Shown here: positions 29,633 to 63,872 of the stretch, in pieces
Position numbering within the stretch: position 1 is the first letter of the stretch
How the letters are laid out: the number at the start of each line of letters is the position of its first letter
Assembly: GCF_003018255.1 (NCBI RefSeq)
Contig: NZ_CP027440.1
DNA from: Escherichia coli
Lineage (GTDB): Bacteria; Pseudomonadota; Gammaproteobacteria; Enterobacterales; Enterobacteriaceae
Reading direction: 5' to 3' (one strand)
Length of the DNA: 64,000 bases
The notes under the pieces: model-generated
Told to the model about the DNA's origin: nothing
Seen by the model: the letters and a program-made list of their open reading frames with translations, nothing else
The model's database searches: none
Position numbers and translations under genes: made by a program

Positions 29633-30541
29633 ATGGCTGCCATTAATACGAAAGTCAAAAAAGCCGTTATCCCCGTTGCGGGATTAGGAACCAGGATGTT
29701 GCCGGCGACGAAAGCCATCCCGAAAGAGATGCTGCCACTTGTCGATAAGCCATTAATTCAATACGTCGTGAATGAATGTATTGCGGCTGGCATTACTGAA
29801 ATTGTGCTGGTTACTCACTCATCTAAAAACTCTATTGAAAACCACTTTGATACCAGTTTTGAACTGGAAGCAATGCTGGAAAAACGTGTAAAACGTCAAC
29901 TGCTTGATGAAGTGCAGTCTATTTGTCCGCCGCACGTGACTATTATGCAAGTTCGTCAGGGGCTGGCGAAAGGCCTGGGACATGCGGTATTGTGTGCTCA
30001 CCCGGTAGTGGGTGATGAACCTGTGGCTGTTATTTTGCCTGACGTTATTCTGGATGAATATGAATCCGATTTGTCACAGGATAACCTGGCAGAGATGATC
30101 CGCCGCTTTGATGAAACGGGTCATAGCCAGATCATGGTTGAACCGGTTGCTGATGTGACCGCATATGGCGTTGTGGATTGCAAAGGCGTTGAATTAGCGC
30201 CGGGTGAAAGCGTACCGATGGTTGGCGTGGTTGAAAAACCAAAAGCGGATGTTGCGCCGTCTAATCTCGCTATTGTGGGTCGTTACGTACTCAGCGCGGA
30301 TATTTGGCCGTTGCTGGCAAAAACCCCTCCGGGAGCTGGTGATGAAATTCAGCTCACCGACGCAATTGATATGCTGATCGAAAAAGAAACGGTTGAAGCC
30401 TATCATATGAAAGGGAAGAGCCATGACTGCGGTAATAAATTAGGTTACATGCAGGCCTTCGTTGAATACGGTATTCGTCATAACACCCTTGGCACGGAAT
30501 TTAAAGCCTGGCTTGAAGAAGAGATGGGCATTAAGAAGTAA
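29633..30541 (+). CDS. galU: UTP-glucose-1-phosphate uridylyltransferase
   Basis: 302-aa ORF starting [35 protein letters not shown]. Confidence 0.97.
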
Positions 30542-56102: not shown

Positions 56103-56291
56103 TTATCCAGCCGGTGTTTCGTTATTCAGGTACAGCGATACTTTGTTTAACGGGAGACATTCACCGGAAATTTTTTGCTCGTCTCTTGCCTGATGGCAGG
56201 ATTCTTTACTGGCATAAATTCCGGTAATCACATTCTGTGGCTCACCCGTTATAAGAAAAACCGTCATTACCAGTGCAAATGCAGAAGTCAC
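56103..56291 (-). CDS. ydfD: YdfD-like small membrane/lysis protein (DUF1482-type)
   Basis: MTSAFALVMTVFLITGEPQNV..CHQARDEQKISGECLPLNKV.. resembles K-12 YdfD (MNSAFVLVLTVFLVSGEP..). 4-nt overlap with the dicB-like gene. Confidence 0.75.
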   Translation of the reverse strand: MTSAFALVMTVFLITGEPQNVITGIYASKESCHQARDEQKISGECLPLNKVSLYLNNETPAG

Positions 56292-56476
56292 TGCTGCCCT
56301 CCGAAAATGCCAAGTTTAAGAAGGGCAATTCTGGAGAGTATGGAATTATCATTGAGAAGATAAGGCTCATATTTTCTCATCCTGATGGCGTCCTCAGTAA
56401 ACTCCCGGTTACTGAGCAGAATACCAATATTAAAACACCCTTCAGACGTATTAACGTTTGGTAGTGACGTTTCCAT
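56288..56476 (-). CDS. dicB: DicB-like cell-division inhibitor
   Basis: METSLPNVNTSEGCFNIGILLSNREFTEDAIRMRK.. compared with K-12 DicB MKTLLPNVNTSEGCFEIGVTISNPVFTEDAINKRK.. (from memory). The length (62 aa) and the position after dicF are the same. Confidence 0.85.
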   Translation of the reverse strand: METSLPNVNTSEGCFNIGILLSNREFTEDAIRMRKYEPYLLNDNSILSRIALLKLGIFGGQQ

Positions 56477-56653
56477 TATCGCGTCCTCAACAATGAATTT
56501 TGTGATGTGGTGCCTGGTGCCTCCAGGTGACGTTAACCAGTTAACAATTAACGCCGGATTGTTAGTTGATGTCTGTTACGCCAGTAAAAGACCGCTTGTT
56601 TTAACTGTTCCGCGTGCGCTTAGCCGCATTCACCGCATCACAAAATACACTTT

Positions 56654-56693
56654 AAAAATGGCGGATATCCATTTCCGCCGAATCACCAGAAAA
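56654..56693 (-). ncRNA. dicF: DicF-like sRNA, short variant
   Basis: The minus strand reads UUUCUGGUGAUUCGGCGGAAAUGGAUAUCCGCCAUUUUU. The 5' UUUCUGGUGA and the GGCGG/CCGCC terminator stem plus U-run match K-12 DicF as remembered. It lies about 180 nt upstream of dicB, as in Qin. Confidence 0.5.
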
Positions 56694-56772: not shown

Positions 56773-57015
56773 ATGGAGGAAGCCCCAGCCATACTTACCG
56801 CCGCGCCATTTCGCGGATTGCCACAACCGGAAGCGCACGATCGAATTACATTTAACGACGACATATACAGAGAGACTAACTTCGCCGAGCGCTTTCGTGT
56901 TGTGTGCCTGCTTTTAACCACGTCAGGCGAGGTGGACCTGTTATTCCCCAACAACAAGGAGCTTGTTAATCTGGATATCCCCAACAACAATAAGAGTATT
57001 GAATGTGATCGCTGA
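56773..57015 (+). CDS. Hypothetical 80-aa ORF, first ORF of the opposite-strand cassette
   Basis: ORF-track entry (MEEAPAILTAAPFRGLPQPEAHDRITFNDDIYRETNFAERF..). It overlaps the next plus-strand ORF by 11 nt. The minus-strand ORF covering it is S/L/R-rich, like a shadow frame. The Shine-Dalgarno is poor and I recognise no homology. Confidence 0.3.
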   Translation: MEEAPAILTAAPFRGLPQPEAHDRITFNDDIYRETNFAERFRVVCLLLTTSGEVDLLFPNNKELVNLDIPNNNKSIECDR

Positions 57016-57519
57016 ATTAACGGCAGCAATGACGGCTATTCGTGAAACCGCTCAGATTACAAAACTAATGAACGAGGCAAAAACTCAAGCTGAAGTAAAT
57101 GCGGCTATTGGTGAACTGAACTCAAAGCTTGCATCTATTCAGCACGAATGCGTGTCTCTCGTTGAGCTGGTGAGCACTTATCAAGAAATAAATGCTTCTC
57201 TCAAAGCTAAAATTGCAGAATTTGAAAACTTTGAGGCTCAGACGGAAGGTTATATCCTTAACCAACTTGAGTCGGGAACTTTTGTGTACTCGAAGGAGGT
57301 AACCGTGAACGGCGGCAGCATAATCATGCATCTTTGTCCAAAATGTTTTGGACAAAAGATAGTATCGATACTTCAACCATTCCCGGTTAGAGAACATGAG
57401 TTTTTCATAAAAGCAGGTGCCTCTACTGTGAAAATCAGTTTCTTATGAATAAAAATCCGGATTATGTATCGCCTCCATCTATTGAGGAGTTGGCCAGAAA
57501 ACTGAACGGCAATCTGTAG
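57005..57519 (+). pseudogene. Coiled-coil plus four-Cys zinc-ribbon protein of unknown function, frameshifted at a T5 run (or carrying a homopolymer sequencing error)
   Basis: The frame from the GTG at 57005 (or the ATG at 57029) encodes heptad-rich sequence, then ..HLCPKCFGQKIVSILQPFPVREHEFF, and stops at 57448. The +1 frame after the T-run (57401-05) continues HKSRCLYCENQFLMNKNPDYVSPPSIEELARKLNGNL to a stop at 57519. This supplies the second Cys pair of a CPKC-N24-CLYC ribbon. Confidence 0.55.
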
Positions 57520-57632
57520 ATTGTTACTGTTATGGATATCCAGATTGTTAAAGAGCATGCCGGATGCTTGCTTGTGTCCGGCGCGTGTGCACCAGTTCTC
57601 CCCGTGGAGGATTCCTTAACTACCAGACTTCA

Positions 57633-57785
57633 TTAGTCAGAGTTTCTTGCTAACCAGCGACGCGCGCCAGCTTCAGTTTTAAACGTTTTGCTTCTGGTAT
57701 ACGTCATCGCGGTAAACGTGCCGTCCTGGTTGGGGAATACTCCGCATACCAGAGATTCGTTGTTGCCAAGATTGAGCGTATCCAT
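57633..57785 (-). CDS. ydfA: YdfA-like DUF1391 protein (50 aa)
   Basis: Hand translation gives MDTLNLGNNESLVCGVFPNQDGTFTAMTYTRSKTFKTEAGARRWLARNSD. GAGG lies 6 nt upstream of the ATG. It is near-identical to K-12 YdfA as remembered, and too short for the ORF track. Confidence 0.85.
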   Translation of the reverse strand: MDTLNLGNNESLVCGVFPNQDGTFTAMTYTRSKTFKTEAGARRWLARNSD

Positions 57786-58080: not shown

Positions 58081-58500
58081 TCAGGAGGCTTTTTGTTTTT
58101 TCTTTCGCGCTAATTCTTCATAAATTGCGTTGTACTTCTGTTTTTTCTCCTCAAGAGTTTTTAAAAGTTCATCAGTTTCACTGTCAGGGAGTTCATCAAG
58201 AAGTTCAATGATGATTTTTTGCTTCGGACTTAACTCCTGATAGAAACGCAGGCTTCCGCTTTCTTCAGTGTCCTCCCCCAGAAGGTAAGTTGGTGTTGTT
58301 CCGATAAGTGCTGCCAATTCTTTCAGTTTCTCTCGACGGGGAATTGCCTCTCCATTAAACCATTTACTAACCGCTTTGGGTGTTAGCTTCATTCGACGGG
58401 CAATTTCTGCCTGCCTTCCGTGTTGTTCAAAGCCAGCATTTTCACAGGCTAGCGCAAGCCTGCTGGCGAACTCTTTACGCGCTTCATCTTCATGAACCAT
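58081..58500 (-). CDS. DicA-like prophage repressor (XRE HTH, no S24 peptidase domain)
   Basis: 139-aa ORF with an HTH (QAEIARRMKLTPKAVSKWFNGEAIP) and a C-terminal segment LSPKQKIIIELLDELPDSETDELLKTLE that parallels DicA LSPKELELLELFNALPESEQ. It is divergent from the cro-like gene. Confidence 0.85.
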   Translation of the reverse strand: MVHEDEARKEFASRLALACENAGFEQHGRQAEIARRMKLTPKAVSKWFNGEAIPRREKLKELAALIGTTPTYLLGEDTEESGSLRFYQELSPKQKIIIELLDELPDSETDELLKTLEEKKQKYNAIYEELARKKKQKAS

Positions 58501-63506: not shown

Positions 63507-63599
63507 AAACGGTTTGCGGGGAAAGAAGAGTTAAGTAGAATTGCTGCGGGTGCTTGAGGCTGTCTGCCTCGGGCATGCCGCCGTAAGGCAGACAGAGAA

Positions 63600-63703
63600 A
63601 AGCCCCAGTTAACATTACGCGTCTTGCAGGACGCTTAACATTAATCTGAGGCCCAATCTATGCTTCACAAACGTAGGTTAGCCTCTTACGTGCCGAAAGG
63701 CAA
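63600..63703 (-). ncRNA. sok: Sok-like antisense RNA and its promoter (approximate)
   Basis: Minus-strand promoter TTGCCT (63703-698)-N17-TAACCT (63680-75). The transcript would be antisense to the mok start and leader, and contains a GCGTC-N6-GACGC hairpin. The 3' end is not defined. Confidence 0.35.
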
Positions 63704-63872
63704 GGAGAAGCAGGCTATGAAGCAGCAAAAGGCGATGTTAATCGCCCTGATCGTCATCTGTATTACCGTTGTTGTGACGGCACTGGTAACGAGGAAAGAC
63801 CTCTGCGAGGTACGAATCCGAACCGGCCAGACGGAGGTCGCTGTCTTCGTAGACTACGAATCTGAGAAGTAA
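63660..63872 (+). CDS. mok: Mok-like reading frame (in-frame upstream extension of hok)
   Basis: 70-aa ORF MLHKRRLASYVPKGKEKQAMKQQ.., with the same organisation as K-12 MokC/HokC as remembered. Confidence 0.6.
   Translation: MLHKRRLASYVPKGKEKQAMKQQKAMLIALIVICITVVVTALVTRKDLCEVRIRTGQTEVAVFVDYESEK
63717..63872 (+). CDS. hok: Hok/Gef-family type I toxin (51 aa)
   Basis: MKQQKAMLIALIVICITVVVTALVTRKDLCEVRIRTGQTEVAVFVDYESEK is near-identical to HokC/Gef (MKQHKAMIVALIVICITAVVAALVTRKDLCEVHIRTGQTEVAVF..). GGAG lies 9 nt upstream. Confidence 0.9.
   Translation: MKQQKAMLIALIVICITVVVTALVTRKDLCEVRIRTGQTEVAVFVDYESEK

Follow-up and report, generated by a model that had tools for sequence, protein, structure and literature searches.

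The stretch of DNA analyzed here (the window) comprises 64,000 nucleotides of contig NZ_CP027440.1 of Escherichia coli and holds a lambdoid, Qin-like prophage that adjoins ompW. In the early-left operon of this prophage, one gene on the opposite strand, which spans positions 57005 to 57519 once its frame is restored, is a frameshifted member of the Rip1 ('ring interacting pore 1') family. It represents an uncharacterized and locally broken member of a family first described in 2026, and the portable regulatory module in front of it is the more interesting by-product of the analysis. We consider it likely that the locus is a Rip1-family single-gene defense, carried on a moron cassette antisense within the early-left operon and controlled by a sieB-type promoter and a sas-like antisense RNA. 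An initial annotation of the same positions had proposed a lysogen-expressed defense module of two open reading frames (ORFs) and could name no defense family for it, a novelty that it had made conditional on the absence of clear homology to a characterized phage function. Profile searches and structure prediction both gave clear homology to Rip1, and the novelty claim falls by that standard. The idea of a lysogen-expressed defense was right in kind, as Rip1 is an anti-phage family, but a frameshift has cost the local copy half of the zinc site.

The frame-restored protein of 171 residues matched phrog_1244 of PHROGs, a family whose function is unannotated, at E 1.9e-57, and HK446 gp37 (Rip1), HK620 HkaP and JBD30 gp30 matched this family too (E 1e-51 to 1e-61). 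Searching the PDB with a profile of 46 homologs (hmmsearch) returned one solved structure, 9oox Rip1, at E 4.9e-24 and over nearly the full length (profile positions 6-152 against residues 16-160 of chain 9oox_L), and a single-sequence phmmer comparison with 9oox gave E 1.1e-7. The title of that entry is Escherichia phage HK446 Rip1 in complex with phage T6 small terminase. An AlphaFold (AF2) model with a predicted local distance difference test (pLDDT) value of 91.3 consists of two long helices (residues 2-24 and 28-79) and, after them, a zinc-ribbon half built from six strands. When this model was compared with the PDB by Foldseek, chains M and L of 9oox were the only matches below E 1e-3 (E 5.4e-7, target-normalized template modeling (TM) score 0.71, 28% identity). 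Profile-profile comparison (hhalign) likewise gave 98.9% to HK446 gp37 and 99.4% to gp30 of Pseudomonas phage JBD30. Both CxxC motifs, Y83, V94-Y95 and I122-L123 are invariant across the characterized Rip1 and the window-type proteins, and L42, G91, Y95 and the four cysteines (C111, C114, C139, C142) are invariant in the alignment of 46 homologs. Scans of both ORFs against Pfam, NCBIfam and PADLOC yielded only coiled-coil noise or nothing; PADLOC-DB v2 (2023), which contained no matching family at E<=1, is older than the description of Rip1. A search of the literature on hkaP, phrog_1244 and the homolog accessions found nothing relevant.

Homologs of the window gene number 118 across the Enterobacterales (40-98% identity); all are labeled 'hypothetical' and nearly all are 155-175 residues long. 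At E<=1e-3 the superfamily as a whole amounts to 3345 clusters of 50% identity, whose representatives nearly all have 145-180 residues. Ratios of nonsynonymous to synonymous substitution rates (dN/dS) of 0.12-0.37 were obtained against ten homologs, and the relatives of the window gene have kept their frames and evolve under purifying selection. The four cysteines that characterize the Rip1 family are present in the intact allele and in each of the 46 homologs, while the window copy does not have them all, and the gene is solitary, without a partner, in all contexts that were looked at.

The window-type proteins share with Rip1 of a P. aeruginosa prophage and of HK446 (gp37) a length of about 165 residues as a single protein, an N-terminal helical hairpin, a C-terminal beta and Cys4 zinc-ribbon half, membership in phrog_1244, a full-length profile match and the top fold match, and they also share a prophage-borne, solitary position on the opposite strand within a lytic operon. 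They differ in being only 27-30% identical, in forming a distinct enterobacterial subfamily, and in their N-terminus (MIAEL...), GTG start and extra C-terminal tail, in addition to the frameshift of the window copy. HkaP of HK620 and the homologs in HK629 and HK630 resemble the window gene by phrog_1244 (E 7.9e-51), by the slot between cIII and N and by the upstream core element described below; HkaP is 30% identical and is annotated from its position only. The relation to lambda sieB and rexAB, by contrast, is a functional analogy of prophage-expressed accessory defense genes near the immunity region, as the proteins have no sequence relationship and rexAB are two genes co-transcribed with cI.

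The reading frame in the window starts with GTG at 57005. All diverged homologs start at MIAEL in the alignment, and this fixes the start at that codon. The coiled-coil peptide quoted in the initial annotation for the N-terminal half is indeed in frame from there, and the 11-nt overlap with the upstream 80-codon ORF is correct. As it stands, the frame of this coiled-coil and zinc-ribbon protein is open from 57005 to 57448, i.e., 147 codons of which the last 13 are out of frame. The extent to 57519 given earlier is thus that of the restored gene, and the need for frame restoration had already been noted at that time. In the alignment to strain STEC435, T5 versus T6 is the sole difference over 1.1 kb, and the intact STEC435 allele (WP_033885209.1) is 99.9% identical. 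Another intact allele is that of O157:H7 (WP_000559928.1). With the frame restored, the protein contains C111-x2-C114 and C139-x2-C142, so that the reported CPKC-N24-CLYC motif holds for the restored protein but not for the frame in the window, where the product diverges from residue 135 (truncated after 134), keeps C111 and C114 and loses C139 and C142. The frameshift at codon 135 and the loss of the second CxxC indicate that the window copy is probably dead, and the gene is most likely non-functional here.

It is unlikely that the window gene is functional after all, be it through an assembly error at T5, through slippage as an on/off switch or through activity of the 147-residue product, for example as an inhibitor of the Esc type or as a sensor with altered properties. 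In favor of function, the lesion affects one base of a homopolymer, the product retains its helical N-terminal half as well as the first CxxC, and the frameshift in two slightly different alleles could reflect recurrent slippage. Against an assembly error, 4 contigs from NCBI and Logan encode exactly this truncated product and 2 further contigs a one-residue variant with the identical shift, which shows that the lesion is real and rare rather than a one-off error. Against a switch, T6 is short for a contingency tract. T5 was found in 0 of 40 complete E. coli genomes carrying the window allele. The four cysteines are invariant in the 46 homologs and in the characterized Rip1, and the residues that are missing come from the half that touches the terminase ring in the account of Rip1 given in PMC13434031. 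The two alleles that share the T-run frameshift differ by one residue (T19 or A19; proteins P0324 and P0007) and hint at recurrent slippage at the T-run. Start codons of the enterobacterial subfamily are GTG in nearly all of the loci numbered L003-L028 and TTG in L027, while the rip1-like genes of HK446, HK620 and L020 start with ATG; the GTG start may keep translation of rip1-like genes low. One protein from a metagenome contig in the European Nucleotide Archive (ENA) (P0084, 295 residues) joins the first ~85 rip1-like residues to DUF1627-like sequence and probably reflects a deletion or chimeric assembly.

DNA alignment shows that the ~105 nt upstream of the gene are homologous to the promoter and leader of sieB in P22 as well as to the sas antisense RNA (Table 1). 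A blastn search against phage records gave 80.8% identity over 51 nt to a P22 stretch annotated 'sieB: promoter'; in P22 the promoter is annotated at 29690-29720 and the start of the sieB RNA at 29727, and sieB and esc are annotated too. The promoter and leader have ~84% DNA identity in Salmonella and Citrobacter cassettes despite dS values of 0.7-2.3, and the 32-nt core is common even to HK446 and HK620. TCCCCAACAACAA occurs twice at a spacing of 33 nt, where HK446 and P22 carry CCCCTACAG twice. At the -10 position the alignment places TAATCT in the window, TAAACT in P22, TATAAT in loci L006 and L035 and TAAAAT in HK446. The module is present as a single copy in the window and was absent from shuffled sequences.

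The predicted sas-like region is antisense to the rip1 start codon, the Shine-Dalgarno (SD) sequence, the leader and the promoter. Its 3' module has the conserved core aCCACC..GCCUGA.GUGGuuAAAAG(A)CAGGCA, directly after which conservation ends. Over the sas region the window and P22 are 58% identical overall and nearly identical in the core. Ranade and Poteete are said to have found in 1993 that lytically growing P22 makes sas, thereby shutting off SieB and escaping its own exclusion. The published sas sequence of P22 (127 nt; Table 2 of PMC13397905) maps exactly to the minus strand of the P22 locus (L157:1187-1313), antisense to the sieB start codon, its SD, both repeats and the core. Passages on sas in PMC7067206 and PMC12197685 describe it as inducing a translational switch between two sieB-encoded peptides and as critical for SieB superinfection exclusion. 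The sieB-like position seen in the initial annotation is well founded, namely a solitary accessory gene on the opposite strand of the early-left operon, beside the immunity region and behind a homolog of the P22 sieB promoter. The window locus and sieB/esc/sas of P22 agree in lying antisense within the PL operon and next to the immunity region, in promoter, leader and antisense-RNA homology, in the 32-nt core and in paired repeats around -35 and +1. They differ in the cargo, which in the window is unrelated to SieB (no PF14163) and has no evident Esc-type internal start, in the repeats (CCCCAACAAC versus CCCCTACAG in P22), and in the extra inverted repeat and 3' flank that P22 lacks. By eye, the region fitted none of the sigma-32, sigma-E, sigma-S or LexA-box consensus sequences, RNAalifold of the leader gave only an invariant 4-bp stem without covariation, and the leader had no match in Rfam at gathering score or at E<=10. 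Read in the direction of sas, the core would allow a compact H-type pseudoknot (ACCAC/GUGGU plus GCCUG/CAGGC, third loop rich in A); every one of its stem columns is invariant and shows no covariation.

Rip1 was reportedly described by Patel et al. (Nature 651:1060) in 2026. The passages on Rip1 in PMC13434031 present a prophage-encoded single protein that is harmless on its own and whose escape mutations fall in the portal for phages of Pseudomonas and in the small terminase for those of E. coli. According to these passages, the small terminase is an 11-mer ring around which Rip1 assembles a 12-mer ring, the N-terminal part of Rip1 is an amphipathic helix and the C-terminal half touches the terminase ring. 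The same source attributes to the Rip1-terminase complex a pore, dye release from liposomes and premature lysis, and calls Rip1 homologs widespread among proteobacterial prophages. In the characterized Rip1 of a P. aeruginosa prophage and of HK446, the 12-mer assembles around the small terminase or portal ring of an infecting phage, and the amphipathic helices at the N-terminus make a membrane pore that brings about cell death ahead of progeny maturation. A meeting report and a 2026 paper agree with this account, and a ring-activated pore also appears in PMC12908700.

By homology, intact alleles of the window subfamily would form a Rip1-like, ring-templated pore and cause abortive infection. 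The N-terminal helical hairpin (residues 2-79) would be the pore part, and the C-terminal beta and zinc-ribbon half with Cys111, 114, 139 and 142 the ring-binding part; the frameshift in the window takes away part of this presumed ring-contacting half and two of the four zinc ligands. In the lysogen, intact alleles would be transcribed from the sieB-type promoter, starting at ~56978. Upon induction, leftward transcription would produce the sas-like RNA, which would block the rip1 ribosome-binding site, and the prophage's own terminase or portal rings would then not trigger suicide. In this way the sas-like module could offer a testable explanation of why a prophage is not killed by its own sensor of late proteins. 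Expression of the rip1-like gene and of the sas-like RNA in the window prophage is predicted from homology only.

Several observations weigh against this reading. A scan for consensus sigma-70 promoters found none on either strand, with a poor match at the sieB-type promoter, and the window's -10 element is weaker than the TATAAT or TAAAAT of its relatives. On the minus strand the same scan found no dedicated promoter for the sas-like RNA. The leader contains no stable or covarying RNA structure (single-sequence fold z=+0.87). No Esc-like internal start is evident in rip1, where the in-frame Met9 and Met22 both lack a clear SD and Met9 is not invariant, so that the 'translational switch' of P22 may not carry over. 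The mechanism of Rip1 is taken here from a review, the meeting report and the title of PDB 9oox. At only 27-30% identity to the studied Rip1, trigger specificity and pore formation in the subfamily are extrapolated from those proteins. Finally, the truncated protein could keep some activity.

There is also a slim chance that the gene, although a Rip1 homolog, acts otherwise than as a ring-templated pore, for example in exclusion or abortive infection after the classical SieB manner, or as a zinc-ribbon regulator that binds nucleic acids. The modest identity would permit this, as would the slot and promoter of sieB, the net charge and N-terminal sequence that differ from those of HK446 Rip1, and the annotation of HkaP as a superinfection exclusion protein, which was made from position alone. 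Full-length homology, the common fold and the invariant motifs speak for Rip1-like action instead. In addition, the SieB profile PF14163, which matches other cargos of the module, had no match at E<=1 to the window protein in Pfam, and no transmembrane segment was found (maximum 19-residue hydropathy 1.13); SieB proteins are membrane-anchored and have ~190 residues.

Very unlikely is the possibility that the plus-strand unit serves mainly to regulate the leftward ydfA-dicF-dicB transcript in antisense, an effect already raised in the initial annotation. The unit is transcribed convergently to the leftward operon, in whose transcript it lies upstream of DicF, and with its own terminator lost in the window, read-through towards ydfA is conceivable. 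The cassette is, however, also found in backbones without dicF or dicB, its protein is under purifying selection, and the documented logic in P22 runs in the opposite direction, with leftward sas RNA acting on the defense gene.

The 80-codon ORF that had been taken for the first gene of a two-ORF cassette is present, but it was rejected as a gene and the cassette contains one gene only. It is a chance ORF over a mosaic junction: the cassette boundary at 56898 runs through its middle, its N-terminal half is the reverse strand of the ydfC-dicF spacer (~90% conserved in K-12 Qin and non-coding there), and its C-terminal half is the promoter and leader of the rip1-like cassette. Homologous ORFs change frame. 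In the L006 counterpart the CCCCAACAACAA repeats are read as P-Q-Q-Q instead of P-N-N-K and the stop differs, and database matches are fragments of 45-138 residues with differing starts, ends and frames. In other backbones the cassette comes without this ORF; the distance between the gene and its neighbor in Salmonella is just 128 nt. A two-gene module (toxin-antitoxin or sensor-effector) with the 80-residue protein as partner therefore has hardly any chance of being correct, as the 11-nt overlap, the equivalent open stretch in L006 and the many short 'hypothetical proteins' that match parts of the ORF stand against the splitting boundary, the variable matches, its absence from other backbones, the lack of a family match in Pfam, PHROGs, PADLOC and NCBIfam, and the action of the characterized Rip1 as a single protein in the passages of PMC13434031 that treat it.

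The gene is carried on a mobile cassette. Homology with unrelated prophage backbones ends at 57556, and in the window the intrinsic terminator that follows the 3' flank in most relatives is missing. An inverted repeat of 26 nt (81% complementary, with a 13-nt perfect core) brackets the ORF. It was found in 16 of 20 enterobacterial-subfamily loci (23 loci were examined in all), with a score that was reached by 0-2 of 200 shuffles. The first part of the 3' flank is the inverted complement of the -10 and transcription start site (TSS) region, and the 3' flank GGATATCCAGATTGTTAAAGAGC, intrinsic terminator included, is found behind Rip1-like genes as well as behind several unrelated cargos. Transposon ends were considered for the inverted repeat and rejected, as conservation continues for ~70 nt past the left arm, and the 3' flank common to other cargos includes the right arm. 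The inverted repeat and 3' flank were also seen at L002, L003, L007, L016, L019, L025, L028 and others, and in Izhakiella (L023) both arms carry matching changes.

The cassette (>=80% of its length) occurs in 647 of 5426 complete E. coli genomes (~12%), including O157:H7, and in only 67 does it have the exact context of the window. A 94% identical segment lies between yfdP and cI in phage PhiR49_1, and cassette DNA is also found in the potC prophage of O157:H7 and, between yfdP and the repressor region, in strain MS20655. Further window-type homologs occupy the dicB/DUF1391 slot in another ompW prophage, the region between xis and cI in Citrobacter and that between cro and replication genes in Salmonella; in the contexts examined they are always solitary and antisense near the repressor or immunity region. 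Among the more distant relatives, HK446 Rip1 is on the plus strand between an anti-restriction gene (ral) and N inside the minus-strand PL operon, and HK620 hkaP, annotated as 'putative superinfection exclusion protein', is on the plus strand between cIII and N in the minus-strand PL operon. JBD30 gp30 lies on the opposite strand between the small and large terminase genes, which fits the location of Rip1 as described in the relevant part of PMC13434031.

The regulatory module is found in front of many other genes. Searching IMG/VR for exact matches to the core pattern TGCCTG(N)CTTTTNNCCACNTCAGGCNNNGTGG returned at least 120 contigs (loci L037-L156), of which 112 had enough flanking sequence. 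Among the matches listed, an ORF starting 33-75 nt downstream of the core is Rip1-like in 13 of the 112, and the other cargos form ~27 clusters, of which roughly 20 are credible. Two cargos are of the SieB type (PF14163 at 3e-25 and 1e-29). The commonest others are a family of 144-158 residues, a 106-residue membrane protein, zinc-ribbon proteins of 68-81 residues, an 81-residue protein and phrog_6315. Comparison of these cargos with PADLOC gave no convincing match and two marginal ones (E ~1e-3 to 1e-4). In E. coli genomes the slot that houses the window cassette can also hold the module with other cargos. In E. coli E2865 (L034:1579-1899) the module is followed on the plus strand by an unannotated ORF of 106 residues with hydrophobic segments, and in strain SW071619 (L035:1610-2220), also on the plus strand, by an ORF of 53 residues and a phrog_6315 protein of 148 residues; neither cargo had a match in Pfam or PADLOC. 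Another cargo from IMG/VR (L081, 136 residues) has a coiled coil and a CxxC...CxxC C-terminus and was missed by the Rip1 profile at E<=1e-3; it may be a very distant Rip1 relative or an analog.

Perhaps, though we would not yet put this above an even chance, the ~120-nt sieB-promoter and sas module is a portable, self-silencing platform that drives at least 20 unrelated small cargos, singly in each case, in lambdoid and Qin-like prophages of Enterobacterales, and whose sas-like RNA would switch off the suicide gene of a prophage that itself turns lytic. The conserved 3' flank often bounds the module, and cargos would then be swapped by recombination. Self-silencing, if true, would matter for Rip1 in particular, as the trigger rings (terminase or portal) are made by the prophage too, and a position behind the module would strongly predict new abortive-infection genes. 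Occurrence of the module before unrelated small genes offers a cheap "guilt by promoter" route to new prophage defense genes. For Rip1 itself, the ~12% of complete E. coli genomes in which the cassette gene is labeled 'hypothetical protein' can now be annotated with a Rip1-family defense gene, while a pseudogene annotation is warranted for the window copy. As a subfamily only 27-30% identical to the studied proteins, the enterobacterial members provide a test of the generality of ring-templated pores and of which phage rings are sensed.

Table 1 Positions of the rip1-like gene, its regulatory elements and neighboring features in the window.
Feature	Position	Strand	Basis or remark
rip1-like gene (Rip1/phrog_1244 family), 171 codons frame-restored; pseudogene here	57005-57519	plus	
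Frameshift site, T5 homopolymer versus T6 in intact alleles	57401-57405	plus	alignment to STEC435
sieB-type promoter and leader module	56899-57004	plus	homology to P22 sieB promoter region
Invariant 32-nt core TGCCTG(N)CTTTTNNCCACNTCAGGCNNNGTGG	56905-56935	plus	
Direct repeat TCCCCAACAACAA, two copies	56945-56957 and 56978-56990	plus	
-10-like element TAATCT	56967-56972	plus	alignment
Predicted TSS, at the second repeat	~56978-56979	plus	by homology; 5' untranslated region ~27 nt
SD AAGAG	56992-56996	plus	
Predicted sas-like antisense RNA region	56886-57009	minus	positional homology to P22 sas
80-codon ATG ORF, chance ORF across the cassette junction at 56898	56773-57015	plus	
Mobile cassette (moron), ~660 bp	56898-57556	plus	DNA common to unrelated prophage backbones
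Inverted repeat, left arm (AATCTGGATATCC core)	56968-56993		overlaps -10/TSS region
Inverted repeat, right arm (GGATATCCAGATT), start of the conserved 3' flank (..AGATTGTTAAAGAGC)	57521-57546		
Shortened DicF homolog with intrinsic terminator (stem 56660-56679)	56654-56692	minus	alignment to K-12 dicF, terminator scan
dicB	56288-56476	minus	
DUF1391/ydfA-like gene	57633-57785	minus	
Helix-turn-helix (HTH) repressor	58081-58500	minus	

The surrounding prophage is collinear with that of strain STEC435 at 97-98% identity. From right to left, the minus strand encodes the repressor, the DUF1391/ydfA-like gene, the DicF homolog, dicB, a DUF1482/ydfD-like gene and an 823-residue exonuclease, followed by xis and int, in line with the flanking gene order described initially from the repressor to the exonuclease. 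Comparison with K-12 also bore out the initial annotation in that ydfB and ydfC occupy the equivalent slot of Qin, which is where the cassette is inserted. Both slots have the ydfA-like gene as one flank and, at the opposite end, the DicF precursor with dicB; that of Qin differs in holding two small minus-strand genes and no plus-strand cassette. Qin-like phages carry ydfB and ydfC or other genes in this slot, and the suspicion that it is a variable hotspot proved justified, as many small genes are exchanged there. The element called dicF-like is a homolog of DicF by pairwise alignment, in which the 5' UUUCUGGUGA and the terminator stem are kept, but ~19 internal nt are missing relative to K-12 dicF and the Rfam DicF model (RF00039) gave no match to it at gathering score or at E<=10. 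In the spacer between the DicF homolog and dicB (56466-56661, minus strand) there is a sub-threshold Rfam match to STnc100 (31.4 bits versus a gathering score of 47). Further to the right in the prophage, a gathering-level Rfam match to the sok antitoxin RNA (63548-63722, plus strand, 117.7 bits) suggests a hok/sok-type locus.

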